A stretch of 64,000 nucleotides of DNA from an uncultured Verrucomicrobiae bacterium (GTDB lineage: Bacteria > Verrucomicrobiota > Verrucomicrobiia > Palsa-1439). Shown here piece by piece: positions 22,796 through 51,930 of this stretch (its first letter is position 1; each line of letters begins with the position of its first letter). The notes under the pieces are model-generated. The model had not been told where the DNA came from, did not search any database, and saw nothing but the letters and a program-made list of their open reading frames with translations. The stretch lies in assembly GCA_963812605.1 (NCBI GenBank), contig CAWEWF010000008.1, positions 96,001-160,000 of the forward strand, read 5' to 3'. The translations under genes were made by a program, and so were the position numbers.

Positions 22796-25279
22796 ATGAT
22801 GAATCGGAAGAGTGCGCGCTATTCGTTGTTGCTGATCAGCCTTTTGTGGCCGCTTCTGCATACCACCCCATGTTCCTCACAAGGTCATGTCGTTCTTGAC
22901 GGAACACTGGGCAGCAGCGGTCCGTTATCGGGTCCCAATTTTAACATCACCTCGGGACTCGGCAAGACCGTCGGCAATAATCTCTTTCAAAGTTTCAGCC
23001 AGTTCGATCTGGTCAATGGTGACGTGGCAACTTTTTCCGGTCCGGCCAATATCCATAACGTCCTGGCCAGGGTGACGGGCGGGAGTCTTTCTTCGATCGA
23101 CGGGACGATTGAATCGAGCATCCAGGGGGCCAATCTGTTTTTTATCAATCCGTTCGGCGTGCTGTTCGAATCCAACGCCAAGATCAATGTCAGCGGTTCG
23201 TTCGCGGTCACCACCGCCAGTTACATCAAGCTGGCCGATGGCGGGAGATTTGACGCGGTCAATCCGGGCGACAGCATCTTGACCGCTGCTCCGGTGAGCG
23301 CCTTTGGATTCTCCGGCACGCCGGGGAGCATTTCTTTTGCCGCGAATCAAGGCACGCTGGGCGTGAACGCCGGCCAGAGCTTCTCCGTGATCGGCGGTGA
23401 CATCATGATAAATGGGGCAACGATTCAAGCGCCGGGTGGCCGCGTCAACCTCGTCAGCGTCAAATCCGCCGGAGAACTGGCGCTGGATGTGACGGACTTC
23501 ACGGCTCTTCCTAACACGACAGCTTTCAGCAGCCTGGGCCAGATTACCGTACAGAATCAGAGCGTGATTAATGCGAGTGCAGATGGCGGCGGGCAGGTAG
23601 TGATTCGTGGCGGAACGCTGATGGTGCAAAACTCCCTGATTGAAGCGAATACCCTCGGCGCGTTTGATGGCAAGGGGATCGATATTAATGTGACCGGTAA
23701 TCTCGTTGTAAACGGCGGCGCAATTAGTACAGACACTTCAGGCTCGGGGGATGGAGGCTCGCTCAATATCACGGCGGGTGCGATCACTCTTAACGCAGAG
23801 GGAAGTACTACCCTATTCGGAATTCTCTCTGATGACGTAAGCGGGAGCGGAAACGGTGGGAACGTCAACATTGCCACCCCGACTCTTGATATATTGAATG
23901 GGGCGCGAGTCTCAGCCGCGACGGGCGGCGTGGGTAATGGCGGTAACGTCACGGTTTCCGCCAACAGAATCGATATCGATGCCCAGAATGCCCAAGGACC
24001 AGAGGCGCCGTTGACGGGGTTCGCCGTGAGTTCCCAGTCAATGGATGCGGGTGGTGGCAATGCTGGCAGCATCGTTATTCGCCCGCTGAGCGGCGCGCTC
24101 AGTCTACAGGTTGTCAACGGCGGATTGATCTCCGCGAACACACAGGGCGGCGGTGCCGGAGGCGGCATTGATATCATCGCCGATTCCATTCTATTGGACG
24201 GACAGGGCGCTTCCATTGGCACAGGAATCGCCGCGACGACCTTCTCAACGGGTGCGGCCGGCGAAATTACCATTCACCAAACTCGCACACTCACCATGCT
24301 GAACGGCGCAACGATTGATGCCGAAACCCATGGTTCCGGAGCCGGAGGCGACATCGACATCGCGGCGAAGACCATTGACATGGAAAGTTCTTCCGCGATT
24401 TCTGCCGGGACAATAGGCCATGGACCGGGGGGCGGAATCACCTTGACTGCCAAAACGATTCATGTGGATGGAAACAACACCCAAGTGACCGCCGGCAACG
24501 ACGATGGCTTTGATGGTGATGCGCCCGCGGGTGATATTATCATTCGGACCGGTTCCCTCGATGTTCTGAATGGCGCAGCGGTCTCTGCCCTGGTAAAGGC
24601 CGGTAATGGAGGCAACATCAGCATTACCGCCCATTCCAGCATCGACGTCCTGAATGCCGGCATCACTGCTTCGGCACCTAAGGGTGATGGGGGCAACGTC
24701 ACCATCATTGCCGGTGATTTTCAATCGGTGGACAGCCAAATCACTGCCAACGCAGCTCAGATCGGCGGCAACATTAGCCTGAGTGTGCTGTCAACGATTA
24801 GCCTTGAGAATAGCCCGATCACCGCTATCGCTGGCGCGACGAGCCCGAACGCCAGGATGAGTGCCAGCATTATGGGTGGCAACATTTTTATTGGCCCACC
24901 GCTCCTTCTCTTTGATGCCGCGTTCACGGGATCCGCGGACCCGCAGTCCACGATCAACGCCAGCGCCAAGGGTATGGGAAGCGTGGGAGGCAACGTTACA
25001 TTTGCGCGAAACTTCACCTATGTCAACGTATTGCATTCAGGAGACTTTGAGAACGGCACGCTGAAAATTGGCGGACCAATTCTTGATTTGACGGGAATTG
25101 TGGCTCCGTTGCCCGGGTCACTGTTGGACGTCGAGGCAGAGCTTCAGCCTTACTGCGGAATGAATCTGGCCGGTGACGTCAGCAGTTTCCTCGTGCGCGG
25201 CAGCGGGGGAGTGGTCTTGGAGCCGTTCGGCGTGTCGCCGAGCTTCGGATGGCCGGTTTTCGATGACAAGAGGCGATAG
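22796..25279 (+). CDS. TpsA-type exoprotein 1 (filamentous haemagglutinin N-terminal/TPS domain, beta-helix repeats)
   Basis: Signal peptide; GNNLFQSFSQF, NVLARVTGG, ANLFFINPFG TPS motifs; GGNI.I repeats; conserved C-tail LQPYC...SSFLVRGSGG. Confidence 0.9.
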   Translation: MMNRKSARYSLLLISLLWPLLHTTPCSSQGHVVLDGTLGSSGPLSGPNFNITSGLGKTVGNNLFQSFSQFDLVNGDVATFSGPANIHNVLARVTGGSLSSIDGTIESSIQGANLFFINPFGVLFESNAKINVSGSFAVTTASYIKLADGGRFDAVNPGDSILTAAPVSAFGFSGTPGSISFAANQGTLGVNAGQSFSVIGGDIMINGATIQAPGGRVNLVSVKSAGELALDVTDFTALPNTTAFSSLGQITVQNQSVINASADGGGQVVIRGGTLMVQNSLIEANTLGAFDGKGIDINVTGNLVVNGGAISTDTSGSGDGGSLNITAGAITLNAEGSTTLFGILSDDVSGSGNGGNVNIATPTLDILNGARVSAATGGVGNGGNVTVSANRIDIDAQNAQGPEAPLTGFAVSSQSMDAGGGNAGSIVIRPLSGALSLQVVNGGLISANTQGGGAGGGIDIIADSILLDGQGASIGTGIAATTFSTGAAGEITIHQTRTLTMLNGATIDAETHGSGAGGDIDIAAKTIDMESSSAISAGTIGHGPGGGITLTAKTIHVDGNNTQVTAGNDDGFDGDAPAGDIIIRTGSLDVLNGAAVSALVKAGNGGNISITAHSSIDVLNAGITASAPKGDGGNVTIIAGDFQSVDSQITANAAQIGGNISLSVLSTISLENSPITAIAGATSPNARMSASIMGGNIFIGPPLLLFDAAFTGSADPQSTINASAKGMGSVGGNVTFARNFTYVNVLHSGDFENGTLKIGGPILDLTGIVAPLPGSLLDVEAELQPYCGMNLAGDVSSFLVRGSGGVVLEPFGVSPSFGWPVFDDKRR

Positions 25280-25331
25280 GACGATTTTCGATGGCAACGG
25301 CAATGGCCAATCTTCATTCAAGAGCAACTTC

Positions 25332-27696
25332 ATGGTGGCGATACAGATGATCGAGCGAATGGTGGCCTTCTCTCCCGCCCGATTTCACACAGGGCGGGCT
25401 TGGTTAACAGTTCTTTCCGCCGTTCTGATCACAGTCACTCTTTGCTGCCGGAGTTGCTCGGCCTGGAACGGGTCGGACGAGGGCCGGCAGCAGACCTTGG
25501 AGGGTTTGCAGGCCTTTGAAAGAGGCGCCCTGGATCAAGCGGTCTCGCATTGGGAAAAGGCGGCGAAATTCTGCCACGCGCAGCATGACAGCCCAGGCGA
25601 AATCGATTCCCAAGTTTGTCTGGCCCATGCTTATGAGGCCCTGGGGCAATTCAGTGACGCCATCAAACTGCTCCATGACGCTGTGGACCTCGCCGTAGCG
25701 GCGAAAGACAACCAACGCATCATTCTCACCAAGGGCAGCCTGGGAGAAGCCTACTCATTTACCCATCGCTCCGATTTGGCTGAAAGCAATCTCCGGGAGG
25801 CTCTGGCCTTGGCCTTTCAGGATGGCGACCAACACGCTGCCGCCAGAATTGATAACAGCCTGGGAAATCTGCTCGCCTCGCAAGATAAGTTTGCCGACGC
25901 ACTGGATGCCTATCGGCAAAGCGCGTCTCTCGCACGGCAGACTCAGGACCGATTACTGACTGCCAAAGCGCTCGGCAATGCCGCTTCAATCGCCGTTGAC
26001 ACGGCGGCGGCACCCTATGCCACCAGTCTGAATGATTCGGCCTGCGAAGAAGCCCGTCAGGTTCAAGACAGCCACGAAAAAGCGTTTATCCTGACCATCT
26101 GTGGCCAAACATACCAGCGGTTGCTGGGGAGCCAACCTGGATCGCAAGACCTGCTATTTGCCAGCGCAACGAACGCCTACTCGACAGCGCTTCAGACCGC
26201 CCTCACGATCGGTGACGACCGTGCGGCTTCCTACGCTCTGGGAGAGCTGGGGCGGCTCTATGAACAAGACTCGCGCTACACCGAGGCTCTGGATTTGACG
26301 CGCCAGGCGGTGTTCTTCGCCCAGAAGACACAGGCCAAGGAGGCGCTGTACCGCTGGGAATGGCAAACCGGACGCTTGCTGAAGGCACTGAATCAACCCG
26401 CGGCAGCCATCAAAGCATACAGCCGCGCCGTTCAATCCCTGCACGGCATCCGCAATGATTTATTTCTCACCTACGCTAACCGTCCCGTCCCGACGTCATT
26501 TCGGGAGACGATTGGGCCGGTGTATTACGAACTGGCCGACTTGTTGTTGCGGCAGGCTGACACGCTAAAGGACGACAAGCAGATCCAGCAGTGTTTACTG
26601 GAGGCGCGCGACGTCGTGGAACAGCTCAAATCCGCCGAGTTGGAAGATTACTTCCAGGATAAATGCGTCAATCTTGCCAGAAAAACGCGGGTCGAGAACG
26701 TTTCCCGAGATGCAGCGGTGATCTACCTCATCCCACTGCCGGACCGCACCGAGGTGTTGGTTGGGTTTTCCACGGGACTCCAGAAACTAACGGTTCCTGT
26801 GGGATCTCAAAGGCTGGCGACCGTGGTGCAACAATTCCGCAAGAACCTCGAAACGCGCACCTCGTATGAATATCTGGAACAAGCGCGGGAACTGTATGAT
26901 TGGCTGATTCGTCCCATGAAGGAAGAACTCGTGCGCCGGAAGATCCAGACGCTTGTCTTCATACCCGACGGGGCTCTCCAGACCATTCCCTTCGCCGCCC
27001 TCCAAGACGGCCAACGGTTCCTGATTGAGGATTTTGCGGTGGCTGTGACGCCGGGTCTGACTCTGACCGCTTCACGGTCTGCCCGTCGGGCCGACCAGCA
27101 AATGCTGCTCGCGGGTTTGTCCCAAGCGGCACAGACCTTCCCTCCCTTGGACTATGTGCCGACTGAGCTTCAGAACCTGAAACTTCTGTATCGAGGTGAA
27201 GAACTGCTAGATAAGGATTTCCTGAAAGCGACATTTGAAAAGGATTTTGAGCAGAAACAATACTCCATCGTTCACATCGCATCCCATGGGCAATTTGAAC
27301 CCGACATTAGCAAGACCTTTATATTAACATACGATACCAACCTCAACCTGGATGCGCTAGAGCACCTGATTCGCCCAAGCCAGTTCCGGAAGGAGCCAGT
27401 CGAACTGTTGACCCTCAGTGCCTGCGAGACGGCGGAGGGGGATGATCGTGCCGCGCTGGGCCTTGCCCGGTGTGGCAGTTAAAGCCGGCGCGCATAGCGC
27501 CTTGGCCACGCTCTGGTCTGTGAATGACCAGGCAAGCACATTTCTGATCTCAGAGTTTTATTCTCATTGGGCAAGTGATAGGTCAATTTCAAAAGCCAGG
27601 GCACTTCAATTGGCCCAGATCACAATGCTGGCTCATAAGCGTTACCATCACCCGTGTTATTGGGCCCCCTACCTGCTGATTGGCAATTGGCTGTGA
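25332..27696 (+). CDS. Exported TPR + CHAT (caspase HetF-associated) protease 1; frameshift ~27465
   Basis: Hydrophobic N-terminal segment; TPR repeats; LVFIPDGALQTIPFAAL, HIASHG (His), LSACET (Cys), ATLWSVND, HPCYWAPYLLIGNWL. Confidence 0.9.
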
Positions 27697-27712
27697 GCCC
27701 GCAGGCCGGAAT

Positions 27713-29650
27713 GTGAAACGCTTCTTCGGACAGACCTGGCCTCCTCAGTTCGCGAGCGTACTGCTGGCCGTGGTCTCATTACTGCTGATGCTCTGGGTGT
27801 GCCACTTCCAAAAGTTTCAGCATCTTGAACTTATCTGGTACGATAAGTTGATTTGTTGGCGAGCGACACAGGGCCGCCCTGATCCGCGGATTGTTCTTGT
27901 GACAATCACTGAAAAGGACATTACGGACCCGCAACTTCCTGATTGGCCTCTGTGGAACGATCAGCTCGCACGTCTCTTGCAAACTATCGAAAAACACGAG
28001 CCGGCAGTTATCGGGCTGGATCTCCTGCGCGATATTTCCGTGCCAAAAGCCAATATCGATCAATTCCAAAGACTGAACGCGATGCTGTCAAATAACGCCA
28101 ACATCGTTTGTACCTTTATATTCGGTGGTACGCCCCCTCCTCCGGCATTACAGGGCCTTAAGGATCGGATCGGCTTTGCTGACAGTCCGATCGACTATAA
28201 AATTGACGGGGTTGTTCGCCGCGGTTTTCTGTACCTGGACGACGAAACGACTTGGTATCAGTCTTTTGCGTTGAGTGTGGCAGCGCTCTATCTGGCGCCG
28301 CGAGGGATTGTTCCTGCGGCTGATCCAGCCAATAGCAACTGTGTTCAGCTAGGACGAGCGACGTTCTGTCCTCTGGAGTCAAACTACGGCCCTTACCGTG
28401 GAATGAATGCAAGTGGCTTCCAGTTTCTGATCGACTTCAAGGGGCCGCGTCGTTTTCGGGAGTTTACGTTGGGACAAGCGCTGCGAGATGAGTTCAGTTC
28501 GGAAGACCTAAGCAACAAAATTGTGCTAATTGGAGCCACGGCCGAGAGCGTCCACGACTACAACGCCACGCCCCTTGATGAGCAACATCATGGGCTATAC
28601 CAACAAGCCCTCTTGGTGAACCAGCTTCTGCGGGCGGCACTCGACGGGGACCAACCTTTGCGCGTCTGGCCACCGTCGGTCGAGTGTGCCTGGATTCTAT
28701 TGTGGTGCCTGGCAGGAGCTGGGATCGGCTTGTGGGCGCGCTCGATCTGGTTGTCCATAACGTTGATCGTCGGGGGTCTCGTTGGGATTGCATCTATCGC
28801 ATGGGCTGCATTCGCATCTGGTTGGTGGCTGATTGTCGCCGCCCCGGCCGGGGCGTTCCTGTTGTCCTCCTTTATGGTGTTCGCGTACTCCTCAGTGTAC
28901 GAGTGGTTGCAACGAAGGATTGTCATGCGGTTGTTTTCGCAAAACGTCTCTCCCGAAGTCGCCAAGGAAATCTGGGACCAACGCGAAGCCTTTCTGGATG
29001 GGAACAGACCACGTTCCCAGCAGGTGAAAGCCACGGTGCTGTTCACCGACTTAAAAGGCTTCACCACTTTGGCTGAAAAATTGGAGCCCGACCAGGTGCT
29101 GGAGTGGCTGAATGGATACATGGCCGCGATGTCGAAGGTTGTCATGGAGCATCGCGGGGTGGTGGAGAAATACATCGGTGATTCAATCATGGCTGTTTTC
29201 GGCGTCCCGGTTCCGCGCAATGTCGCCCAACAAGTCCAACAAGATGCAATCCATGCCGTTTCCGCCGCCTTGGCCATGCGCGACCGCATCATGCAGTTAA
29301 ATGACGACTGGAAAGAGGAGGAAAAGCCAACGGCCATGATGCGTGTAGGCGTTCACTCGGGCCTGCTGGTTGCTGGTTGTCTGGGAGGCGCCGATCGCAT
29401 GGAATACACCGTGATTGGCGACACTGTCAATATCGCGTCTCGACTGGAAAGCTACAAAGAGGATCCCGCTGACCCCGGGTTGTCGGTTGGCGGCTGCCGT
29501 ATCTTGATTAGCGATGGCACATGGCAACTGGTGAACGAGCGGTTTCAAACCGAGATTGTGGGTGAAATACTATTGAAAGGGAAAGAGAAGCCCGTTAAAA
29601 TCTATTCGGTGTTGGCGCAATCCACAGTCCCGGAGGCAGCCGCCCGTTGA
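27713..29650 (+). CDS. CHASE2-domain class III adenylyl cyclase 1
   Basis: DPRIVLV.I, VIGLD, KIVLIG CHASE2 motifs; three TM helices; LFTDLKGFT, EKYIGD, YTVIGDTVNIASRLE (K/T = ATP-type, N/R catalytic). Confidence 0.92.
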   Translation: MKRFFGQTWPPQFASVLLAVVSLLLMLWVCHFQKFQHLELIWYDKLICWRATQGRPDPRIVLVTITEKDITDPQLPDWPLWNDQLARLLQTIEKHEPAVIGLDLLRDISVPKANIDQFQRLNAMLSNNANIVCTFIFGGTPPPPALQGLKDRIGFADSPIDYKIDGVVRRGFLYLDDETTWYQSFALSVAALYLAPRGIVPAADPANSNCVQLGRATFCPLESNYGPYRGMNASGFQFLIDFKGPRRFREFTLGQALRDEFSSEDLSNKIVLIGATAESVHDYNATPLDEQHHGLYQQALLVNQLLRAALDGDQPLRVWPPSVECAWILLWCLAGAGIGLWARSIWLSITLIVGGLVGIASIAWAAFASGWWLIVAAPAGAFLLSSFMVFAYSSVYEWLQRRIVMRLFSQNVSPEVAKEIWDQREAFLDGNRPRSQQVKATVLFTDLKGFTTLAEKLEPDQVLEWLNGYMAAMSKVVMEHRGVVEKYIGDSIMAVFGVPVPRNVAQQVQQDAIHAVSAALAMRDRIMQLNDDWKEEEKPTAMMRVGVHSGLLVAGCLGGADRMEYTVIGDTVNIASRLESYKEDPADPGLSVGGCRILISDGTWQLVNERFQTEIVGEILLKGKEKPVKIYSVLAQSTVPEAAAR

Positions 29651-30417
29651 AAGTTCACCTTTCAATTCTGCTGGTCTTGATTGTTGGCGTGATATCGGGG
29701 GCCCCACGTTTGTGCGCCACTGAAAGCAACCAGCCTCCGGCTGCGCCAGCTATTCCCCAGCCAACGGGCGCCCCTGGCACAGCCGCTGTAGCACGGGTCG
29801 TCTTTACGCCTCCGAAGCGCCTCGCCCCACCTGAGAACGAGCGCGTCGATCACACCTCACGAGGCAGCGGGATTTCACTCACCTGCTTGAATGTGCTCGC
29901 TCCGGACAGCACTGCATTGACCATTCAAGAGCAGCCCTCCCTGCTCTGGTATCAGTCGCAGCCGGCGGATGTGCCCTTCGAGCTGAGCATTCTGGTGGAC
30001 AATGAAGTTCACCCGTTGCTCCGAGTTCGGCTTCCAAATGCCAGGAATTTCGGGATTCAGCGTATAAACCTCGCGGATTATAATGTCCGACTTTCTCCCA
30101 ATATTGAATATGAATGGGTTGTGGCCCTTGTGGCCTACCCGGTTAACCGCTCCAAAGATGTGGTTGCCAATGGCTGGATCGAACGCGTCGAGTCTTCGCA
30201 GTCATTGCGATCCAAGCTTGCGACTACCCCAAAGGAGGGCTGGACCTATGTCTACGCCGAGGAAGGGATTTGGGTGGACGCCTTGGCAGCACTTTCCGAC
30301 CTGATTAAGGCGCGACCAACTGACAAAGACTTGCACGAAAACCTCGCGGCGTTGCTGGAGCAGGCTGGTCTGACCAACGCCGCAAACTACGCTGCCTCCA
30401 TGACCTTGAAGGAATAG
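29647..30417 (+). CDS. Exported DUF928 protein 1
   Basis: Signal peptide, Pro-rich linker, SRG motif, LT..QPSLLWY, EYEWVVAL, GWIERV, YAEEGIWVDAL. Confidence 0.85.
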   Translation: MKVHLSILLVLIVGVISGAPRLCATESNQPPAAPAIPQPTGAPGTAAVARVVFTPPKRLAPPENERVDHTSRGSGISLTCLNVLAPDSTALTIQEQPSLLWYQSQPADVPFELSILVDNEVHPLLRVRLPNARNFGIQRINLADYNVRLSPNIEYEWVVALVAYPVNRSKDVVANGWIERVESSQSLRSKLATTPKEGWTYVYAEEGIWVDALAALSDLIKARPTDKDLHENLAALLEQAGLTNAANYAASMTLKE

Positions 30418-30598: not shown

Positions 30599-31237
30599 TC
30601 AAGCCCCGTCACTCCCGCCAGTTTCTTTCTTGCGACAATCCGGGACCCCATGCAGAACTGCGTACCCCATCACGCGTTTCAAACTCTCAATATCCATGTT
30701 GACCGTTCGACTTGACACTCGCGCCGCATGTCTCGTCGCCCAATGCTCGCATTCCAACCGAGAGATTCCCGCAACGCTTTCCCCGCCAATCCCCTTCGCG
30801 ACCACTTGGATGCTGTAGCGGCGGCGACGGACTGTTGATTGCCGTAAATTGTGTTGAGTAGCCAACCAAGCATCTCCGACAACCATGAACGACTTTCCTG
30901 CGAGCCGATTGGGCAACAATGATTCCGGCGGCGCGGGACGAAACGCGGATCGCATTAAAGTTCCAGGATGCGTTCCATCGGACGGGGGACTGTTCAAACC
31001 GGAGCGGAATTCAGCGAGTTTATGACCTGCATCTCGGAGATCAGTGGTTCCAAGAGACTTCTTGAACTGCTTCTTTTTTCCTAAAATTGTCCGCTTGATG
31101 ATTGCGTAGATGATGCCGGTCGACACATCGCGCCAAAGGCATTCGCCGCAGTTCTTGAGGATTTGGCGGTAAGAACCAGCGGTGGCGGGACTGACTTTGG
31201 GGTTACGAGTCGAGACTTGCGCGAACTTGGAGAACAT
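30599..31237 (-). pseudogene. N-terminal (arm/core-binding) part of a tyrosine integrase
   Basis: LWRDVSTGIIYAII...KKSLGTTD and [20 protein letters not shown]; no catalytic domain; adjacent to tRNA. Confidence 0.65.
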
Positions 31238-31272
31238 AACATTCTTTCCAAGTCGCTCCGTTGTTTGGATTT

Positions 31273-31349
<77 letters not shown>

Positions 31350-41751: not shown

Positions 41752-41835
41752 TGTCACCCTGAGCGAAGCGAAGGGTCTCGCTATGCTGTTGGCGAGCGCG
41801 CAAAAGAGAGATTCTTCGCTTCGCTCAGAATGACA
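41752..41835. repeat. REP-like miniature inverted repeat
   Basis: TGTCACCCTGAGCGAAGCGAAGGGTCT ... AGATTCTTCGCTTCGCTCAGAATGACA terminal inverted repeats. Confidence 0.8.
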
Positions 41836-42158: not shown

Positions 42159-42186
42159 TTGCATCGCACCTGGGTGCAACTATGAT
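42159..42186 (+). promoter_or_regulatory. Sigma70-like promoter of tpsA operon 2 with TTGC-N13-GCAA dyad
   Basis: TTGCAT-N16-TATGAT; paralogous to 22743-22770. Confidence 0.55.
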
Positions 42187-42214
42187 AAATTGTTGGCGTG
42201 GAGATCGCAGCGTT

Positions 42215-44939: not shown

Positions 44940-47353
44940 AAGAATCCCGGTCGCAGTCGCAAAGGCGCTTTGGGGCAACTTCAGAATGATGATGCAGACC
45001 GCCGGGCTGGTTTCGAACTTCCGTCCTTGGCGCTTTTGTCCCAGGCGAATGTCTGTCGCGCTCCTGGCCGTCGCCCTGTTGCCTCTGGGGATTTGCCGGG
45101 GGAGTGACTCTGCCGGGGGCAATAATAATATGGAGCTGGGGCGGAAAGAAACCGCAGAAGGGATTGGGGCCTTTGATAAAGGCGCTTTCGAGGAGGCGAT
45201 CTCTCATTGGGAAAAGGCCATACGGTTCTATCAAGCGCGACATGACAACCCGGGCCTGATCGATTCCCAAGTTCGTCTGGCCGCTGCCTACGAGGCCATC
45301 GGGCAATTCAGCGAGGCGATCAAACTCCTGGGTGACGCGGCGAATCTCGCCGCCAGTATCGGTGACCGGAAACGCATTATTCTGGCCAAGACCAACCTTG
45401 GAGAAGCGCGGTCGTACACGCGCCGTGCTGATCTCGCCGAGGCCGACTTGCGTGAAGCCCTTGCCTTGGCGCTCAAGGATGAAGACCCGAAAGCCGCCAG
45501 TTCCATTTACAACAGCCTGGGCAATCTGTTGGTTGCGGAGGGCAAGTTTGGGGATGCCCTGGAGGCTTATCGCGAGGGAGCTTCGATGGCACGGCAGATA
45601 CACGATCGACTGCTGGCTGCCAAAGCGCTCAGCAACGCCGCTGCCATGACGACACGCACGGGCACACCGGCCGATGGCACAAGCCTGAATGATTCCGCGA
45701 TGGAAGAGGCCCATCAAGCTCCCGACGGCCACGAAAAGGCTTCTGTCATGATCATCTGCGGACAGACGTACGGACAGTTGCTGGGGCGCGAGCCGGGCTC
45801 GCATGACACACTCTTTGCCGCCGCCACAAACGCCTACGACCAAGCTTTCCAGATCGCCCAGAAGATCGGCGACAAGCGCGCCGCTTCCTACGCCCTGGGA
45901 GGGCTGGGAGGAATTTATACGCAAGATTTACGCTATGCCGAAGCTCTGGAGCCGACGCGCCAGGCCGCCTTTCTTGCCCAGGAGACACAAAACACCGAGG
46001 CGCTCTACCGCTGGGAGTGGCAGACCGGTCGCCTGTTCAGAGCGCTCAATCAGCCCGTCGAGGCCATCGCCGCCTACCGGCGCGCGGTCCAGTCCCTGCA
46101 ATTGATTCGGAATGATCTTTTCCTCACCTATGCGAACCGTCCCGTGCTGGGGTCATTTCGAGATGCGGTCGGCCCGGTGTACTATCGAGCTGGCTGATTT
46201 GTTGTTGCGGCAGACGGATACCCTGACGAATCCGAAACAGATCCAGCAGAATTTGCGGGATGCGCGGGACATCGTCGAGCAACTCAAATCCGCTGAGTTG
46301 GAAGATTACTTTCGTGATGAATGCGTCAATCTCGCCAAGCAGACACGTGTCGAGGACGTTTCCCCGGACGCTGCGGTCATCTATGTCATCCCGTTGATGG
46401 ACCGCACGGAGGTGTTGCTGGGGTTCTCCACAGGACTGGAACGCTTTAAAGTCCCCGTTGGATCCGAGGAATTGACAGCCGAAGTGCAGCAATTCCGTAA
46501 GAACCTTGAAAAACGCACGACGTACGAATATCTGGAACAGTCGCGGAAACTCTATGATTGGCTGATTCGCCCCATCAAGGACGAACTCATACGCCGTCAC
46601 GTTCAAACGCTTGTTTTCATACCGGATGGAGCCCTCCAAACAATCTCCTTTGCCGCACTTCAAGATGGCGAAAGGTTTTTAATTGAGGACTTTTCCGTGG
46701 CCGTAACCCCGGGTCTGACCCTGACCGCGCCGCGATCGGCGCGCCGAGGAGGCCAACAAATGTTGCTCGCGGGTTTGTCCCAAGCGGTGCAGGGATTCCC
46801 TCCCCTGGACTATGTGCCGATCGAACTTGAACATTTGCGGCTTCTATATCCGGGCCAGGAGTTGTTCAACAAAGATTTCCTGAATGCGGCGTTGGAGAAG
46901 GATTTTGGGGAGCGGCAGTATTCGATCGTTCACATCGCCTCCCACGGTCAATTTGAACACGATGTCACCAATACCTTCGTTTTGACGTATAAAGGTACAC
47001 TCAACCTCGATGGGCTGGAGCGCCTGATTCGCCCGAGCCAATTCCGCAGCGAGCCGGTCGAACTCCTGACCCTGAGCGCCTGCCAGACGGCAGCCGGGGA
47101 TGACCGCGCCGCTCTTGGCCTGGCCGGGGTGGCGGTCAAGGCCGGCGCCCGCAGTGCGCTCGCGACCCTCTGGTTCGTGAACGACCAGGCCAGCACGTCG
47201 CTGATGTCGGAGTTTTACTCTCAGTTGGCCGGCGATCAGTCAATTTCAAAGGCGCGGGCACTGCAATTGGCGCAACAGAAAATGCTCGCGGATCGGCGGT
47301 ATCACCACCCGTGCTACTGGGCGCCTTACTTATTGATTGGGAACTGGCTGTGA
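44926..47353 (+). CDS. Exported TPR + CHAT protease 2; frameshift ~46185; real start probably downstream
   Basis: MSVALLAVALLPLGIC signal-like segment; TPRs; HIASHG, LSACQT, HPCYWAPYLLIGNWL. Confidence 0.9.
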
Positions 47354-47369
47354 AACCGGTGGGCGCGGT

Positions 47370-49322
47370 GTGAAGCCGAGGCCGAAACGGCTGTGGCCGG
47401 CGTGGTGCGTTAGCTTATTGATCACCGGCATGATTTTCGCCGTGGTGGTGGGCCTGCGACGCATCGGATGTATCCAGCGCTTGGAATTCTTTGCATATGA
47501 CTTTTTCGTCAGGGAGCAAGCTCCGTCGATGTCCAAGGATCCTCGGATCGTGCTCGTTTGTATCGACGAGGCTGATATCCAGACAACGAACCTTGACCTT
47601 GACTATCCCGTTCCCGACGAAACCTTGGCGCAACTGCTGGAAAAAATCGAGGCGCAACGCCCGCGAGTGATTGGACTCGATATCTACCGAGACAAGCCGG
47701 TGGCGTCCTGTGCGGAGGGCCAGAACCTCTCCTGTGACGAGCAACATCAACTCCTAAATCAGGTTCTGCTCTCAAACGCCAATATCATCTGCATTTTCCG
47801 AATACCGGATCCGAACGATCTTGAGGGAGTGAAACCTCCGCCGGTGATCGCCGACCAACCGGATCGAATCGCGTTCAACGATCTGCCCAACGATGGCAAC
47901 GAAGTCCGGCGCAGCTTGGTGGCCCAATCCGTCGGGACCACCCAATTCTTATCATTGGCTTGGAGTGCGGCCATTCAATATATTGAGCAAGAGGACAGTA
48001 ATCATCTGTTCGAGCCAGATCCGGCCCATCCAGGGCGATCGCGACCGGTATTGCGCTTTCTCGAACACAATGACGGCCCGTATGTGAACCTCGATGCAGC
48101 AGGAGAACAATTTCTGATGGATTTTCGTGGGCCACGCACGTTTCAAACCATTTCAGGGACGGAGCTTATCCGAGAAAGATTGCCGACTAATACATTTAGC
48201 GACAAGGTTGTACTCGTTGGAATGACCGCTCACAGCGTGAAAGACGACTTGTACACGCCTTTAAAGCGACCACTCCGTGGCATAGAGATTCACGCCCAAG
48301 TAATCAATCAGTTGCTCCGGATTGCTCTGAACGGCGACCGCCAGCTTGCGTTCTGGGCCGATTGGCAGAAGGACGCCTGGACTCTGCTCTGGTGTTTGGT
48401 TGGAGGGGCTGTCGGGTATGCCGTTCGTTCTCCGTGGCGTTCCTCCGGGCTGCTTGGCGCCGCGTTGGTTGTTCTGGGTGGTTTGGCCTGGTGGGCGTTT
48501 TCCGTGGGATGGTGGATTCCCGTTGCCACCCCTGCGATCGCTTGCATTGCCACCGCCGTTTCCGTCAATTGGTATATTTCCTATCAGGAAAAGATGCAAC
48601 GGCAAATGATCATGCAGTTGTTTTCCAAACAAGTGTCTCGCGAGGTTGCCGAGACGATCTGGGCGCAGCGCAACGAATTCTTGGAAGGCGGACGCCCGCG
48701 GGCGCAGCAGCTCAAGGCCACGGTGCTCTACACGGATTTGGAGGGCTATTCGTCCTTGGCCGAGTCCCTCGAGCCGGCTGTGGTAATGGATTGGTTGAAC
48801 GAATACATGGGCATGATGGCCGAGGCGGTGATTGGCCATCACGGTGTGATCGACAAATTTATCGGGGACGCAGTCATGGCACTGTTTGGAGTTCCATTGG
48901 CACGCAAGACTGACGGAGAGGTCAAAGAGGATGCCGTCAATGCGGTCCGCTGCGCGCTGGCAATGGAACAGGGTTTGGCTCGACTCAACACCGTGTGGGC
49001 GGGACAGCGTCTGCCGACCTGCAGAATGCGAGTCGGAATCCACACGGGCCATTTGGTGGCTGGCAGTGTGGGCGGCACGGAGCGTATGGAGTATACTGTG
49101 ATCGGAGATACGGTCAACACGGCTTCCCGTTTGGAAAGCTTCGACAAGGACCGTCGTGAACCGGATCTTGCGGGTCGCTGTTGTCGGGTATTGATTGGCG
49201 AGAGCACGCGGGATCTTGCGGGAGATCAATTTGAGACAAGGCGTGTTGGACAGGCCAAGCTGAAGGGTAAAGACCAAGAGGTGACCATCTATCTGGTGTT
49301 GAAAGAGATCTCTCAAACGTGA
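47370..49322 (+). CDS. CHASE2-domain class III adenylyl cyclase 2
   Basis: CHASE2 motifs, three TMs, LYTDLEGYS, DKFIGD, YTVIGDTVNTASRLE. Confidence 0.92.
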   Translation: MKPRPKRLWPAWCVSLLITGMIFAVVVGLRRIGCIQRLEFFAYDFFVREQAPSMSKDPRIVLVCIDEADIQTTNLDLDYPVPDETLAQLLEKIEAQRPRVIGLDIYRDKPVASCAEGQNLSCDEQHQLLNQVLLSNANIICIFRIPDPNDLEGVKPPPVIADQPDRIAFNDLPNDGNEVRRSLVAQSVGTTQFLSLAWSAAIQYIEQEDSNHLFEPDPAHPGRSRPVLRFLEHNDGPYVNLDAAGEQFLMDFRGPRTFQTISGTELIRERLPTNTFSDKVVLVGMTAHSVKDDLYTPLKRPLRGIEIHAQVINQLLRIALNGDRQLAFWADWQKDAWTLLWCLVGGAVGYAVRSPWRSSGLLGAALVVLGGLAWWAFSVGWWIPVATPAIACIATAVSVNWYISYQEKMQRQMIMQLFSKQVSREVAETIWAQRNEFLEGGRPRAQQLKATVLYTDLEGYSSLAESLEPAVVMDWLNEYMGMMAEAVIGHHGVIDKFIGDAVMALFGVPLARKTDGEVKEDAVNAVRCALAMEQGLARLNTVWAGQRLPTCRMRVGIHTGHLVAGSVGGTERMEYTVIGDTVNTASRLESFDKDRREPDLAGRCCRVLIGESTRDLAGDQFETRRVGQAKLKGKDQEVTIYLVLKEISQT

Positions 49323-49334
49323 GGTGGAAAAATT

Positions 49335-50156
49335 ATGACACGCAGTTTTTTTAAAGTTTTGTTTGCGGCCTTGGGATTGAGCCTGCTGTTCGTCGTGGCG
49401 CTCCGATCACAAGAGGCCGCGCCGCCCGCACCCGTCGAGAAGCCCAAGGAGGCGCCAACGTCTCCACCGCCTTCCACCACCGAGAAACCGAAAGAAGGGA
49501 CGAAGACACAACCCGCTCCAACCGTCAAACCGAAGATTCTTTACCAACTTCCTCCGCGAGGGACACCAGTTGCCAGACTTGACGGTGGCTCCCGCGGCAA
49601 TGGCATTTCCCTGATTTGTCTGACCGCTCTGGTTCCCGACAGTACCGCCTTGACGGTTCTGGAACAACCGTCCTTGTTCTGGTATCAATCGCGGGCTGCC
49701 GACGTTCCGTTGGAGTTGACCATCCTGATCGACAACACGATTCAGCCATTACTTCAAGTCCAGCTGCCCGACGCCCGCAAGGCAGGAATTCAGCGGCTGA
49801 ATTTGGCGGACCATAACGTCAAGCTTGCTACCGGCGTTGAATATGAATGGGTAGTGGCGCTCGTGGTCGATTCTGAAAACCGATCAAAGGATGTCATCGC
49901 CAGCGGGTGGATCAAGCGGGTTGACCCCTCCCCATCGCTGAGATCGCAACTGGATAATGCCGCGAGGGAGAATTTGCCGTTTGTCTACGCCGGGGGAGGC
50001 ATCTGGCTGGACACGTTGACGGCGATATCCGACCTGATTGAGACGCGACCGAAGGACAGATCGTTGCGGGAAGGGCGCGCCACGTTGCTGGCGCAAGTGG
50101 GTTTAACCAATGCCGCCGTATATGTCACCTCGCAAGGCGCAATCGATGGAGAATGA
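49335..50156 (+). CDS. Exported DUF928 protein 2
   Basis: Signal peptide, Pro-rich linker, GGSRG, QPSLFWY, EYEWVVAL, GWIKRV, YAGGGIWLD. Confidence 0.85.
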   Translation: MTRSFFKVLFAALGLSLLFVVALRSQEAAPPAPVEKPKEAPTSPPPSTTEKPKEGTKTQPAPTVKPKILYQLPPRGTPVARLDGGSRGNGISLICLTALVPDSTALTVLEQPSLFWYQSRAADVPLELTILIDNTIQPLLQVQLPDARKAGIQRLNLADHNVKLATGVEYEWVVALVVDSENRSKDVIASGWIKRVDPSPSLRSQLDNAARENLPFVYAGGGIWLDTLTAISDLIETRPKDRSLREGRATLLAQVGLTNAAVYVTSQGAIDGE

Positions 50157-50189
50157 GCACGGACCAAAATCCGGCTGAATTGAATCCGC

Positions 50190-51930
50190 TTAGAAGGCCT
50201 CGTAGCTCACTTTAAAATAGATGCCCAGGTCCTGCGCATCATCATTGGGAGTGGTGACCCTGTGGAGTCGGTAGCCCCAATACAGCTGCGCGTTCAGGTG
50301 CCGATTCGGGCTGATCAACAGCCCCATCCCGGCACTGAAAATCGTGGTTGGGTCCGGTGTATGTTCATCCAGGTTCCTCGCCGCGCCGAAATCGAAAAAA
50401 GGGGCCAACTGCACGACGGGAGTTCCCGTCCTGTCGAAAAGTACCGGCAAGTGGAGTTCGGCGGAACTAAAGACCCCTTCGTCTCGGACAATCTGGTTCT
50501 CCCGATAACCTCGGACGCTGTCGGCGCCACCCAAAGTGAATTGCTCCAGCGATAACAACGGTCGGTCTGTCAATTGAACATCGGTGCGCAAGATCAACTG
50601 GTTGGGGGTGCCAAAGAGACGGCGCACATAGTGGGCCTGGCCAAGCCACGCAAAGAAGTTTGCGTTCCGATCAGTGCCGTTATCCGTTACGTCGAACGCA
50701 TCGAGTCCCACGCTGAACGTGGAGCGCAAGGCCAGCACTTGTTCCTGACTGCGGTCAGTCCATTCCTGAATAATGCGCAGGGCCGAGATTTCGGTGACGC
50801 CATTGGTGGAGCCGGGAGAGATATCGAACGGGACCCCCAACAAGAAAGTCTTGCTGTACTCCCGTTCAAAGGAGACGGCAAGCGCCAGTTCCCGATTTGC
50901 CGTTTGGTAGATGGGCTGGCGAAGTGTCGCGCCAGCACGATACGACTCACTGGTAACGTCCAGAGGATTGAATGGTTCCTCAATCACCGCATAATCGTTC
51001 TTGTTACCGTAGATCCGAAGCGTCGTATCATAGGGGGTTAACGGAATCCGGTAGGAGGCCGAAACGTTGTTAAAGTCCGAGAATTTGTAGCCAGGGTTCC
51101 CTCCCTCGGCGATGCCGTAGGAAACCTCCAGGGGGTCAGCGTGCCCCGTGAGATTGATGTCCCGCGCGATGAGCAGAATCTCGTCGGAGCCGACACTTGG
51201 AGGACGGTCGTTGTCCACTTGAAGCCCGACTCGAAATGGCTGCTCGTCTCTCACATGAACGTCCAGCACACTTTTCCCCGGCATAACGTCAGGCCGGAGA
51301 CTCCGCGTTGATTTGGGTGATGTTCGGATCCTGCCGCAATAGTTGCAGCCCCTCCTTCAAATCGTCGGTATTCAGCGGGGTGCCGGCCCATCTCTCGACT
51401 CGGCCCCTAATGTAGCTATCGCGGAGCCATTTGTTTTCCGTCGTAATGTTGGTGGCGGAGATCACGCCTTCGATAATCTGCATGGTGACGACCCCATCTC
51501 GAGGATCCTGGTCCGGCAAAACAGCCCCGGAATTGATATAGCCGTGGCTGACGTAATATTCCGTCACGGCGCGGCGGGCCTCCTCCAATTCCTGGCTCGT
51601 GATTTGCCGCCCGACGTACGCCGCCGTGACTTTCGCGAGTTGCTGCGAGGAGAATACCTTGTTCCCTTGAAACCGGAATTCACGCACGTAGAGGCGAGGC
51701 ATCGAGGAAAGCTTGCTCTGCTCGACCGGAAGCCGCAAGGGCGGAGCAACCAATTCTTGCCCCTTCACGGGGATCGCCAGCAGGACCAGCGCACAGAAGA
51801 CAAGCCACTGCGGCTTGTCAAAAGAGGCACCGATCACCCGGCTTCCTGGGAGAGCCGCCAGACCAGCGGTGAAGACAGTCTCAGGTCGCTCGATTGTGCG
51901 GCCCGCTTGATCCGTTTTCGCCATGCGCAT
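50190..51930 (-). CDS. TpsB (ShlB/FhaC/HecB) two-partner secretion transporter; frameshift ~51297
   Basis: POTRA motifs (FRFQGNKVFS, YYVSHGYINS, IIEG), VRGY motif (GGADSVRGYRE), C-terminal Phe. Confidence 0.9.

Follow-up and report, generated by a model that had tools for sequence, protein, structure and literature searches.

A two-partner secretion module with an exported CHAT protease, DUF928, and a CHASE2 adenylyl cyclase that may signal across the cell envelope

In the two-partner secretion system FhaB/FhaC of Bordetella, FhaB is processed by periplasmic and surface proteases, and a C-terminal part of it is proposed to be retained in the periplasm and cut off by proteases. Csx29 of the type III-E CRISPR system consists of TPRs and a CHAT protease that is restrained until a partner binds. 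The available parts of two reports on S. meliloti (PMC13001267, PMC7529298) describe the CHASE2 cyclases CyaK and CyaD1/D2, which answer a protein signal via outer-membrane NsrA. EACC2-caspase proteins, whose variable C-terminal sensors include CHASE2, are found with an ECF sigma factor and DUF1822, according to the accessible text of Kaur et al. 2021 (eLife, PMC8195603). Since that text, as far as it was available, makes no mention of periplasm, FhaB, or two-partner and was not among the papers listed for DUF928, this trio is not tied there to TpsA, an exported TPR-CHAT protein, or DUF928. In magnetotactic bacteria, the gene after mtxA (MGR_0208) encodes a CHASE2 adenylate cyclase; in the accessible portion of their report, its authors give MtxA no homologs and no function (PMC4439547).

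The locus considered here lies in the window, i.e., the whole 64,000-nucleotide stretch of DNA that was analyzed, which comes from a soil Verrucomicrobium MAG (4.17 Mb, 89.96% complete). A set of four genes, encoding TpsA, a TPR-CHAT protein with a signal peptide, a CHASE2 adenylyl cyclase, and DUF928, is found in two copies, at 22796-30417 and 42215-50156, and a single TpsB gene at 50190-51930, on the minus strand, is convergent with operon 2. The window thus contains one locus that is complete (operon 2 and TpsB) and operon 1 as a second, diverged copy. The original prediction of one four-gene operon present twice with one TpsB stands, as a Pfam search of the window recovers both sets; it had not noticed that 4 of the 9 genes are frameshifted in the assembly, and the gene starts that it gave fit internal Met codons that precede signal-like segments. 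Above the family cut-offs, all matches in the whole MAG fall inside the window (2 DUF928, 2 TPS, 2 CHASE2, and 1 ShlB), as do its two CHAT genes, of which one is split in two. Hence, the assembled part of the genome has one TpsB for two TpsAs, and operon 1 probably shares the TpsB of operon 2. Protein identity between the copies is 71% in the N part and 40% in the C part of TpsA, 56% in the TPRs and 78% in the CHAT domain of the protease, 43% in the cyclase, and 50% in DUF928; judging by their sequences, the two sets are old paralogs.

As in this module, Bordetella FhaC is a TpsB that exports a β-helical TpsA. However, the FhaB-processing enzymes are serine proteases, not CHAT, and neither DUF928 nor a CHASE2 receptor nor a cAMP output is known in that system. 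Csx29 shares the TPR and CHAT architecture with the module protease but is a cytoplasmic, RNA-guided component of defense. The NsrA-CyaK/CyaD1/CyaD2-Clr system of S. meliloti, as presented in the available parts of its reports, also has inner-membrane CHASE2 cyclases activated from outside and cAMP that is read by a cNMP-binding regulator. Its NsrA partner is a single FecR-TPR-barrel protein, whereas the window has a TpsB/TpsA pair, and we know of no CHAT protease or DUF928 in the NsrA system. Among four ORFs scanned in S. meliloti GR4, a 1,221-aa ORF that contains FecR and TPRs extends into the start of a CHASE2 cyclase gene; these two are probably nsrA and cyaK.

TpsA1 (22796..25279, plus strand) is, by its domain content, a two-partner secretion exoprotein (Pfam TPS, E = 6e-36; TIGR01901, E = 5e-19), with a signal peptide, the TPS domain, a Gly/Asn-rich shaft that resembles a β-helix, and a conserved C-terminal tail. 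TpsA2 (42215..44939, plus strand; Pfam TPS, E = 1e-35) has frameshifts at 43842 and near 43970. The Pfam search of the window found no recognizable toxin or adhesin end domain in these short proteins (~830 aa). The two TpsA paralogs are closest to each other in the TPS domain (72 to 94%) and in the C-terminal tail (72%), with 32 to 60% in between. The tail has a single conserved Cys and the motif SSF..GRGG, and 37 of the 41 TpsAs in the cluster have the pattern C-x(5-14)-S-[ST]-[FL]. TpsB (50190..51930, minus strand) is an Omp85-family transporter with POTRA_2 (E = 3e-22) and a ShlB barrel (E = 6e-27), the only ShlB match in the assembled genome; its gene is frameshifted near 51290-51300.

The protease CHAT1 (25332..27696, plus strand; Pfam CHAT, E = 1e-34) starts with a hydrophobic segment. 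Its match covers profile positions 2-216 only, and the rest is in a second frame: the frame breaks near 27470, right behind the catalytic Cys, and the last 71 codons run on in the other frame up to the stop at 27696. CHAT2 (44926..47353, plus strand) comprises two overlapping ORFs (Pfam TPR_12, E = 3e-23, and CHAT, E = 6e-55), as a frameshift near 46190 separates the TPR part from the CHAT domain. As predicted originally, both copies retain the catalytic dyad, His (HIASHG) and Cys (LSAC), which is invariant among 57 sequences. In 48 of the 50 CHAT homologs, a signal-like hydrophobic N terminus directly precedes the TPRs, which argues against a cytoplasmic CHAT, and this caspase-clan cysteine protease seems to go to the periplasm, in line with the predicted export. 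A structure-chain search with the CHAT domain of the window gave no sequence match to any solved chain.

CHASE2 receptor adenylyl cyclases 1 (27680..29650; Pfam CHASE2, E = 3e-48; Guanylate_cyc, E = 2e-28) and 2 (47337..49322; CHASE2, E = 2e-53; Guanylate_cyc, E = 2e-22) are both encoded on the plus strand. Hydropathy indicates the order TM1, periplasmic CHASE2, a TM cluster, and the class III cyclase domain. The claim that both copies keep the catalytic residues holds: the metal Asp, GD, Asn, and Arg are conserved among 53 sequences, and both window cyclases have the Lys and Asp that we take to be the adenine-specifying residues.

DUF928_1 (29647..30417, plus strand; Pfam DUF928, E = 4e-32; alignment A1) pairs an Ig-like sandwich with a TPR-like helical domain and also has a signal peptide, a GGSRG motif, and a Pro-rich linker. 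DUF928_2 (49335..50156, plus strand; E = 1e-35) yielded an AF2 model with a pLDDT of 81.7, whose best structural match is MtxA (PDB 4z29; Foldseek E = 1.9e-5). In VIA comparison, DUF928 aligns with 4z29 over 159 residues with an rmsd of 4.5 and a Z score of 11.7, against a Z score of 6.8 for the next entry. Like DUF928, MtxA (4Z29) is an exported protein in which an Ig-like sandwich packs against a TPR-like helical domain, according to the accessible part of its report (PMC4439547). However, MtxA has no detectable sequence similarity to DUF928 and carries an extra N-terminal part of ~140 aa; a sequence search with the profile of alignment A1 did not retrieve 4z29, and the likeness is structural only. 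DUF928 is also found fused to a peptidoglycan-binding domain, and three proteins of 904 to 932 aa combine CHASE2, cyclase, and DUF928. The latter retain the hydrophobic leader of DUF928, possibly as an extra TM segment, and could be read-through or gene-calling artifacts of overlapping genes. Together with the MtxA precedent, they support a probable link between DUF928 and CHASE2 cyclases.

CHAT and DUF928 were cofolded using the intact homologs from locus L010, in place of the interrupted window genes, and alignments built in this analysis. The pair obtained an ipSAE, which is a measure of model confidence, of 0.79 (0.81, 0.79, and 0.78 in individual runs), versus 0.00 for the best of 3 controls, a level that 116 of 157 solved complexes attained, but only 2 of 215 mismatched pairs. 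The runs share at least 90% of their contacts, with a partner pLDDT of 84. In this model, DUF928 is predicted to dock on the catalytic domain of CHAT: the interface includes A711 and W737-N740 of CHAT, adjoining the catalytic C707, and R89 and the NRSKD loop of DUF928. Conservation of at least 90% is seen for 7 of the 21 interface residues in CHAT (~23% overall) and 7 of 26 in DUF928 (~22% overall), exceeding the background only mildly.

Conservation of the module was surveyed in 80 loci with the DUF928 domains most similar to those of the window; chosen by this likeness and mostly from Verrucomicrobiota MAGs, they are not independent. In the 40 full loci, those with at least 7 kb on each side of DUF928, CHAT is found in 38, the CHASE2 cyclase in 35, TPS/TpsA in 34, and ShlB/TpsB in 33; 26 loci have all five. 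CHAT, cyclase, and DUF928 keep this order among the loci, whose taxon labels include Verrucomicrobiota, Planctomycetota, Nitrospirota, Entotheonella, Rokubacteria, and Proteobacteria. As originally expected, the genes co-occur far more often than chance would allow, but the cyclase is not an obligatory member: in 4 of the 40 full loci (L029, L036, L042, and L049), CHAT, DUF928, TpsB, and TpsA are present and the cyclase is absent, which makes it an optional output and indicates that the other components are able to work without cAMP. Two other loci, L063 and L070, have the cyclase and DUF928 and no other module gene. Annotated cyanobacterial plasmids carry a variant in which TpsA, TPR-CHAT, and DUF928 accompany a CHASE2 protein with an N-terminal CHAT-like caspase domain, encoded beside a sigma factor gene and DUF1822. 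This variant matches the EACC2-caspase trio, as far as the available text describes it (PMC8195603), and CHASE2 is coupled to a cytoplasmic caspase in those proteins versus a cyclase in the window. The open literature searched contained no description of the module as a whole.

The predicted cAMP output looks real: cNMP-binding effectors flank the module elsewhere, and in the window an HD gene that resembles PDE genes comes after TpsB. ORFs with cNMP-binding domains are found in 27 of the 80 loci, in 23 at no more than 300 nt from a module gene; their fusion partners are glutaminase (13 loci), Ser/Thr kinase (4), Crp HTH (2), Fe-S (2), or histidine kinase (1) domains. The MAG has four such ORFs in total, two of them within 17 kb downstream of TpsB. 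One of the four, at 54153..57186 (plus strand; Pfam and NCBIfam matches; frameshift near 54950), joins two cNMP-binding domains to an FAD/NAD reductase and a 4Fe-4S domain; its cNMPx2+Fer4 architecture recurs near the module in L045 and L075, and it is a probable local cAMP receptor. The HD-superfamily protein (52099..53040, plus strand) is matched by NCBIfam NF045583 (E = 1.4e-12, below the cut-off) and Pfam HD (E = 0.08) and has the invariant residues H65, D66, H69, H108, D109, H130, and D189. The best 50 Foldseek matches listed for its predicted fold are all PDE catalytic domains (top E = 1.1e-3). Its relatives are found in 6 of the 80 loci, in four of these just beyond TpsB, and it is probably an accessory part that would reset the cAMP signal. 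The original prediction did not include these downstream genes.

The observed linkage, export signals, and catalytic residues, with the predicted DUF928 fold and the modeled CHAT-DUF928 interface, are consistent with outside-in envelope signaling, to which we give about even chances, and the S. meliloti CHASE2 cyclases provide a precedent; we infer which way the signal runs, what the protease acts on, and that DUF928 binds CHASE2. In the original prediction, CHAT would be switched on by the state of TpsA and would cleave DUF928 or the TpsA tail, with a putative cleavage product as the CHASE2 ligand; these steps are hypothetical. Outer-membrane TpsB would export the ~830-aa TpsA onto the cell surface, and CHAT would reside in the periplasm with DUF928 seated on its catalytic domain. 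The state of TpsA/TpsB (secretion, surface contact, or the conserved C-terminal tail) might set the activity of CHAT, which would act on or release DUF928. DUF928 could then serve as a periplasmic partner or ligand for the CHASE2 domain of the receptor, which would cross the inner membrane to its cytoplasmic class III cyclase. The resulting cAMP would be read by the adjoining cNMP-binding effectors and cleared by the adjoining HD enzyme.

CHAT, guided or restrained by DUF928, might instead serve TpsA maturation or quality control, trimming or releasing TpsA or degrading TpsA stalled in the periplasm, much as in the processing of Bordetella FhaB; the CHASE2 cyclase would then be an independent regulator with another input and a role in expression control only. 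The four full loci that lack only the cyclase would fit such a role, TPRs bind peptides, and the widespread tail of TpsA is one of its two best-conserved parts between the two paralogs, as expected for a processing or recognition site. However, this explanation, which we consider rather unlikely, does not account for the two loci with only cyclase and DUF928, the CHASE2-cyclase-DUF928 fusions, the position of MtxA beside a CHASE2 cyclase, or the cyanobacterial CHAT-CHASE2 protein, with its sigma factor and DUF1822, that accompanies the same TpsA, CHAT, and DUF928. A function in conflict or antiphage defense, with the caspase-like protease and the cyclase as sensor and effector in the manner of Pycsar or TPR-CHAT systems, is very improbable. 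Defense systems do include CHAT proteases and class III-like cyclases, PADLOC finds domain-level matches to PycC (E = 2e-29, cyclase domain) and, weakly, BovA (CHAT), and the distribution is patchy (of 300 other genomes that were sampled from the phylum, 2 have DUF928). Against this, PADLOC has no match for TpsA, TpsB, or DUF928, the protease and DUF928 have export signals, the cyclase sits in the membrane as a receptor whose sensor is periplasmic, and the adjoining effectors (glutaminase, kinase, Crp, Fe-S) have metabolic or regulatory roles and are not toxic.

The five frameshifts in CHAT1, TpsA2 (two), CHAT2, and TpsB could also be real, making these four genes pseudogenes of a module that is decaying in this MAG. 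Two of the sites are outside homopolymer runs, and only two of the five are contradicted by short reads. At these two, however, independent short-read contigs with at least 99% identity to the window show a difference of exactly one base that restores the frame: contigs of runs X1 and X2 have one extra G behind 43842, and a contig of X1 has one base fewer at 51300. This comparison, over a stretch that did not extend to 27470, gave no row for the sites near 43970 and 46190. Further indel differences at 37154, 38149, and 41804, along with these contradictions, indicate that the frameshifts are probably assembly errors. Other long genes in the window are split as well (1754-10230, 13871-22551, and 54153-57186), the module frames are otherwise clean, and the catalytic residues are kept; decay is distinctly unlikely. 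Undescribed in the open literature searched, the module is yet conserved in several phyla.

The module is encoded twice in the window, each time by four forward-strand genes, as called from the ORF listing and Pfam scans. Set 1 encodes a TpsA with a TPS domain (TpsA1, 22796 to 25279; PF05860, E = 6e-36), a TPR-CHAT protein (CHAT1, 25332 to 27696; PF12770, E = 1e-34), a CHASE2 protein with a class III cyclase domain (27680 to 29650; PF05226 and PF00211), and a DUF928 protein (29647 to 30417). Set 2 encodes TpsA2 (42215 to 44939; PF05860, E = 1e-35), CHAT2 (44926 to 47353; PF12770, E = 6e-55), a CHASE2-cyclase (47337 to 49322; PF05226 and PF00211), and DUF928_2 (49335 to 50156). It converges with a minus-strand gene for TpsB (50190 to 51930), which has a ShlB-type POTRA domain and a ShlB barrel (PF08479, E = 3e-22, and PF03865, E = 6e-27, mapped to 50190 to 52014 on the minus strand). 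TpsA also matches TIGR01901 (E = 5e-19) and carries a hydrophobic leader ahead of the TPS domain; in both CHAT genes, several TPR families are matched alongside the CHAT domain; and the DUF928 domains (PF06051) score 111.9 and 123.5 bits, with a cut-off of 26. Pfam thus confirms both sets of the original prediction and its single TpsB, with ShlB found once in G000, the 4.17-Mb, 89.96% complete metagenome-assembled genome (MAG) that contains the window as contig C8:96001-160000. All matches in this MAG above the family cut-offs (two DUF928, two TPS, two CHASE2, one ShlB, and two CHAT genes) lie inside the window. The DUF928 relatives of the window copies carry the name Verrucomicrobiia.

The proteins of the two sets share 71% identity in the N-terminal part of TpsA and 40% in its C-terminal part, 56% in the CHAT TPRs and 78% in the CHAT domain, 43% in the cyclase, and 50% in DUF928. 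On sequence grounds, the two sets are old paralogs rather than a recent duplication. Directly after operon 1 come a short integrase-like ORF and a tRNA gene: within 30599 to 31346, the minus-strand ORF has weak matches to DUF6538 (E = 0.006) and Phage_int_SAM_1 (E = 0.16) and abuts the tRNA at 31273 to 31346, the only feature found in an Rfam scan of 22000 to 53500. Operon 1 may lie on an integrated element instead of being a local duplicate. Adjoining DUF6600 (E = 1.5e-27) and DUF2950 (E = 7e-108) genes, located between the operons at 31994 to 34957 on the plus strand, are not conserved with the module.

The gene content described in the original prediction is real; however, it overlooked five frameshifts, which break four of the nine module genes as assembled. 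One is in CHAT1 near 27470, just past the catalytic Cys, so that the last 71 codons are in another frame, to 27696; two are in TpsA2, at 43842 and near 43970; one is in CHAT2, near 46190; and one is in TpsB, near 51290 to 51300. The assembly was compared over 32101 to 52100 with Logan contigs (depth only 2.5 to 3.3) from three soil-metagenome runs of one study, which may be the source of the window and hence does not represent an independent organism. Contigs of two of these short-read runs, X1 and X2, that otherwise match the window fully have one extra G behind 43842, and an X1 contig has one base fewer at 51300; checking the frames shows that both differences bring the gene back into frame where they occur. 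No indel difference is listed for the sites near 43970 and 46190. Further indel differences between contigs and window occur at 37154, 38149, and 41804, and other long genes of the window are also split, at 1754 to 10230, 13871 to 22551, and 54153 to 57186. The first two, on the plus and the minus strand, respectively, encode very large Ig/PKD-repeat surface proteins, each in 3 or 4 overlapping ORFs, which fits indel errors in the assembly. Given the contig indels that restore the frame, the further indels, and the other split genes, the window assembly contains indel errors and the module genes are probably intact. Upstream of TpsA2, at 41751 to 41838, there is a palindromic repeat (…GTCACCCTGAGCGAAGCGAAGGGTC… and its complement). 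Contig depth rises to 64 to 205 there and many contigs exit the window at 41804 to 41845, which indicates a dispersed short repeat, present in many genomes or in many copies.

The association of these families is conserved in other genomes. An alignment of 20 DUF928 proteins (A1) was scanned against one genome per species; 127 of the 164 pattern matches encode a relative, and the best 80 of these 127 loci were kept. Being the closest relatives of the window DUF928, they form a biased sample of loci that are related to one another. Neighbors were identified by phmmer searches of stop-to-stop ORFs with pieces of the window proteins as queries. Among the 40 full loci, those with at least 7 kb on both sides of DUF928, a CHAT gene is found within about 10 kb of DUF928 in 38, CHASE2 with a cyclase in 35, ShlB in 33, TPS in 34, and all five families in 26 (62, 61, 56, 48, and 28 of all 80 loci, respectively). 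With two CHAT and two CHASE2 genes per 4 Mb, as in a genome like G000, the chance expectation per 20-kb window is about 1%. Among these closest relatives, DUF928 thus lies beside CHAT and the CHASE2 cyclase far more often than by chance, as the original prediction would have it. CHAT precedes the cyclase and the cyclase precedes DUF928, the stop of one gene often overlapping the start of the next, and TpsB and TpsA adjoin them in varying orientation.

Exceptions among the full loci are L029, L036, L042, and L049 (L-numbers denote the DUF928 loci of relatives), which have CHAT, ShlB, and TPS without CHASE2; L063, where the cyclase is the sole partner; and L067, with neither CHAT nor CHASE2. Partners are absent altogether in 3 of the 80 loci (L054, L064, and L080). 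The record titles name Verrucomicrobiota, Scalindua, Tepidisphaerales, Nitrospira, Entotheonella, Rokubacteria, a Pyrinomonadaceae MAG, and beta-, gamma-, and deltaproteobacterial MAGs, a few of the titles being implausible bin labels. At E ≤ 1e-3, the DUF928 family has 6494 representative clusters, of which 1474 reach E ≤ 1e-30; its distribution is nevertheless patchy, and only 2 of 300 further genomes sampled from the phylum have a member. Several relatives (MAG pairs L009/L029, L005/L041, L008/L043, and L018/L046) encode two modules on separate contigs, only one of which includes the CHASE2 cyclase; in each of the four pairs, both modules own a TpsB, unlike operon 1 of the window.

A signal-like hydrophobic stretch lies directly ahead of the TPRs in 48 of the 50 full-length CHAT homologs, many of these leaders having a basic N-region and an AxA-like end. 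Both window copies also have the leader, which favors the periplasmic CHAT of the original prediction over a cytoplasmic one. The His of the HIASHG motif and the Cys of the LSAC motif, assigned as the CHAT catalytic dyad by analogy with the clan rather than from a structure, do not vary in an alignment of 57 sequences that contains the two window copies. Among PDB sequences, no match to the CHAT2 domain was found by single-sequence search. According to hydropathy, the cyclase consists of one TM segment (TM1, about residues 22 to 42), CHASE2, a TM cluster at about 333 to 408, and the catalytic domain. At least 95% of 53 sequences keep the metal-binding Asp and GD and the transition-state Asn and Arg, and both window cyclases have the Lys (DKF/EKY-IGD) and the Asp (IGDTVN), presumably the mark of an adenylyl cyclase. 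Both copies of the protease and of the cyclase keep these residues, as the original prediction states. PADLOC-DB 2.0 contains no system-level match and none for TpsA, TpsB, or DUF928; it gave only generic domain matches (PycC cyclase domain, TPR, and a weak BovA).

In these loci, TpsA is a short protein that lacks a recognizable end domain. The TpsA proteins have in common a C-terminal tail, LDL[ST]G..LP..LL.AE.QL.P.C.......SSF.V.GRGG.P..P., whose core, C-x(5-14)-S-[ST]-[FL], is found in 37 of the 41 complete TpsA ORFs, 3 of the 4 misses being ORFs cut by frameshifts. The window paralogs are 72 to 94% identical in the TPS domain, 32 to 60% in the shaft, and 72% in the tail. The high identity of the TPS domains fits the use of one TpsB by both TpsAs, and the conserved tail suggests a second common partner, possibly the CHAT TPRs.

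DUF928 proteins begin with a signal peptide, followed by a Pro-rich linker; one relative is fused to a peptidoglycan-binding domain. The AlphaFold2 model of DUF928_2 (pLDDT 81.7) shows an Ig-like sandwich (residues 95 to 195) packed on a helical domain (200 to 271). The top Foldseek match of this model is the C-terminal domain of MtxA (4z29_A; E = 1.9e-5, TMt 0.54), and VIA-align superimposes it on 4z29_B with a Z score of 11.7 (6.8 for the next entry) and an rmsd of 4.5, with 159 of 169 residues aligned. Thus, MtxA and the DUF928 model share a two-domain Ig and TPR-like fold, with no sequence likeness detected by profile search: the A1 profile finds no 4z29 chain among PDB sequences at E ≤ 10. 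The PDB rows that it does return, antibody light chains only, are at chance level (E = 0.1 or worse) and were discarded. According to its published description (PMC4439547), MtxA has a signal peptide, Ig-like and TPR-like domains, and no detectable homologs, and the next gene after mtxA encodes a protein in which CHASE2 and adenylate cyclase domains are combined. That the modeled DUF928/MtxA fold should stand beside a like receptor in Alphaproteobacteria by coincidence appears unlikely.

The GG[ST]R motif is invariant in DUF928 and, with an upstream Arg (R81 and R87 of DUF928_2), lies in the linker, modeled with a pLDDT of 54 to 61. It looks like a linear motif for a partner. An assignment of the motif to CHAT was rejected: the Arg-rich motif upstream of GGSRG is not confined to DUF928 genes that adjoin CHAT, and GG[ST]R likewise occurs in DUF928 proteins lacking such a neighbor and in Anabaena.

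Since both window CHAT genes are interrupted, the complex of CHAT and DUF928 was modeled with the intact homologs from locus L010 (CHAT residues 56 to 796 and DUF928 residues 70 to 279), using 30-row alignments made here (A2 and A3). The ipSAE is 0.79 (0.81, 0.79, and 0.78 in the runs), the best of 3 controls scoring 0.00; of 157 solved complexes, 116 attain the 0.79 mark, as do 2 of 215 mismatched pairs, figures that are only approximate here because the alignments are our own. At least 90% of contacts are common to the runs, and the partner pLDDT is 84. On the CHAT side, the predicted interface consists of K513, E516 to E522, L524, E525, G569, E570, A711, W737 to N740, D777 to R779, and C784, and so takes in the loop that follows the catalytic C707 as well as the strand leading up to the invariant D741. 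On the DUF928 side, it consists of P86 to I90, R89 among them, of one sandwich edge, and of residues 189 to 194, which form the conserved ENRSKD loop. Conservation of the interface is only mildly above background and is not counted as support. We know of no solved complex that resembles this one, so a high score owed to a memorized structure is less likely. A CHAT-DUF928 complex model had been proposed as a check on the original prediction; that of the L010 homologs supports, as a prediction, binding of the two.

Putative gene fusions connect DUF928 to the other side of the proposed relay. Three proteins of 904 to 932 aa, from different sources and 42 to 53% identical to the query, contain CHASE2, the cyclase, and DUF928 in one chain. 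It is possible that they are read-through artefacts of overlapping genes. The hydrophobic DUF928 leader is kept at the junction in each, and would put DUF928 back in the periplasm beside CHASE2. Two loci (L063 and L070) have the cyclase and DUF928 only. DUF928 thus accompanies either CHAT or CHASE2 by itself or the two together, the pattern expected for a link between CHAT and CHASE2.

A variant of the module with a different output is found in cyanobacteria, reached by tblastn of the cyclase against plasmids and then through annotated records. Anabaena cylindrica pANACY.04 encodes DUF1822, a CHASE2 protein, DUF928, a 957-aa TPR-CHAT protein, and TpsA; Nostoc punctiforme pNPUN03 encodes a sigma-70 family protein, DUF1822, a CHASE2 protein, TpsA, and a CHAT protein. 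The cyanobacterial neighborhoods mentioned in the original prediction thus exist as a variant. In Pfam scans, the CHASE2 proteins of both plasmids (L083 and L084) have an N-terminal CHAT-like domain in place of the cyclase. That the same front end (TpsA, exported TPR-CHAT, and DUF928) occurs with differing CHASE2 outputs argues that CHASE2 receives whatever this front end yields. A survey of WD40 proteins, the only mention of DUF928 found in the open literature, notes a cluster of WD40, CHASE2, and DUF928 in N. punctiforme. As described by Kaur et al. 2021 (PMC8195603), the EACC2-caspase proteins have variable C-terminal sensors and go with an ECF sigma factor and DUF1822, and the cyanobacterial plasmid loci match these EACC2-caspase-CHASE2/sigma/DUF1822 systems. 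The words periplasm, FhaB, and two-partner are absent from the text of that paper. EACC2-type features are missing in the window, where the CHASE2 proteins carry cyclase domains and Pfam scans of the ORFs detect no Sigma70 and no DUF1822.

The flanking genes point to cAMP. Clustering of the remaining flank ORFs gives one large group, in which the common element is a cNMP-binding domain, found by Pfam in 30 of its 41 ORFs (all 41 scanned). A kinase-WD40 family that had appeared to be the largest flank cluster is an artefact of single linkage. The architectures are Glutaminase-(STAS)-cNMP (13 loci), small cNMP-binding proteins (8), Ser/Thr kinase-cNMP (4), Crp-like regulators (2), two cNMP domains with Fe-S domains (2; L045 and L075), and histidine kinase-cNMP (1). 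A local HMM search finds cNMP-binding ORFs in 27 of the 80 loci and 17 of the 40 full loci; in 23 of the 80, such an ORF lies within 300 nt of a module gene, the case in L082 being possibly spurious. G000 has only four cNMP-binding ORFs, one at 54153 to 57186 of the window and another 3.5 kb past the window end. The former (plus strand, frameshift near 54950) joins two cNMP-binding domains and a 4Fe-4S dicluster to a FAD/NAD reductase of the flavohemoprotein type, an architecture also found near the module in L045 and L075; judging by these domains, its product would be a cAMP-gated redox protein. The glutaminase-STAS-cNMP fusion, of about 630 to 700 aa, is close to the module in its 13 loci (L018, L020 to L023, L026 to L028, L030, L031, L038, L053, and L066), mostly directly beside CHAT. 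Control of glutamine catabolism by cAMP is suggested as one output of the module.

Just downstream of TpsB is a previously unannotated plus-strand ORF, 52099 to 53040, whose family is present in 6 of the 80 loci, in 4 of them just beyond TpsB. It has invariant HD-type His and Asp residues and matches the NCBIfam HD metalloprotein family NF045583 (E = 1.4e-12), far below the family cut-off. All 50 Foldseek matches listed for its model (pLDDT 74) are catalytic domains of cyclic-nucleotide phosphodiesterases, and all are weak (best E = 1.1e-3, TM about 0.45 to 0.55); the class I cyclic-nucleotide phosphodiesterase fold, which the predicted one resembles, is rare in bacteria. Past about residue 275, its 3' end is unlike that of all relatives, which suggests another indel. 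The flanking cNMP-binding genes and this HD/phosphodiesterase-like ORF make cAMP a credible output of the module.

As far as the part of the literature considered here goes, the nearest studied system is the NsrA-CyaK cascade of Sinorhizobium meliloti. On an unannotated S. meliloti plasmid, Pfam detects a 1221-aa FecR-TPR ORF overlapping the start of a CHASE2 cyclase gene, which fits the available description of NsrA and is a candidate for it. NsrA is described as an outer-membrane protein with FecR, TPRs, and a barrel, whereas the window would have TpsB as the outer-membrane partner, with no FecR match among its ORFs scanned with Pfam; the four S. meliloti ORFs scanned include no TpsA/TpsB, CHAT, or DUF928. 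The published CHASE2-caspase work considered here deals only with caspase-CHASE2 fusions. Joint descriptions of CHASE2 with the CHAT domain, or of the CHAT domain with two-partner secretion, were absent from the open literature (subscription journals and supplements being outside its scope), and nothing related to CHASE2 with hemagglutinin was found there by title and abstract. The module most probably belongs with two known kinds of system, two-partner secretion and outer-membrane-dependent CHASE2 cyclase signaling. The reading under which the module is a distinct proteolytic cell-surface signaling system, with a TpsA antenna, a CHAT switch, and a DUF928-derived CHASE2 ligand, is put forward tentatively, as a fair but lesser possibility.

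To our knowledge, no direct ligand has been established for CHASE2, a widespread bacterial sensor domain, DUF928 has no known function, and exported CHAT proteases are unstudied. The originally predicted relay across the envelope is plausible and is better founded now, though we still infer its central steps. In this distinct system, the two-partner-secreted TpsA filament would be the antenna and the periplasmic caspase-like CHAT the switch. DUF928 would sit at the active site of CHAT, to be cut or set free when the state of TpsA/TpsB changes. CHASE2 would then bind as its ligand either free DUF928 or the N-terminal peptide of DUF928 that bears GGSRG. Depending on the lineage, this ligand would stimulate the synthesis of cAMP or act through a sigma factor and a cytoplasmic caspase, and in magnetotactic bacteria MtxA would take its place as the same protein.

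The locus joins CHASE2, DUF928, and an exported CHAT with a two-partner secretion pair, and so gives a testable wiring diagram. A structural handle is provided by MtxA (4Z29), which has the fold of the DUF928 model; there is also a predicted protease-partner interface with named residues, and the read-out would be cAMP, whose receptors and likely phosphodiesterase are encoded by neighboring genes. If true, the mechanism would connect a secreted surface filament to second-messenger signaling by an inward-directed proteolytic route, and would account both for the mtxA-cyclase operon of magnetotactic bacteria and for the CHAT-CHASE2-sigma factor loci of cyanobacteria.
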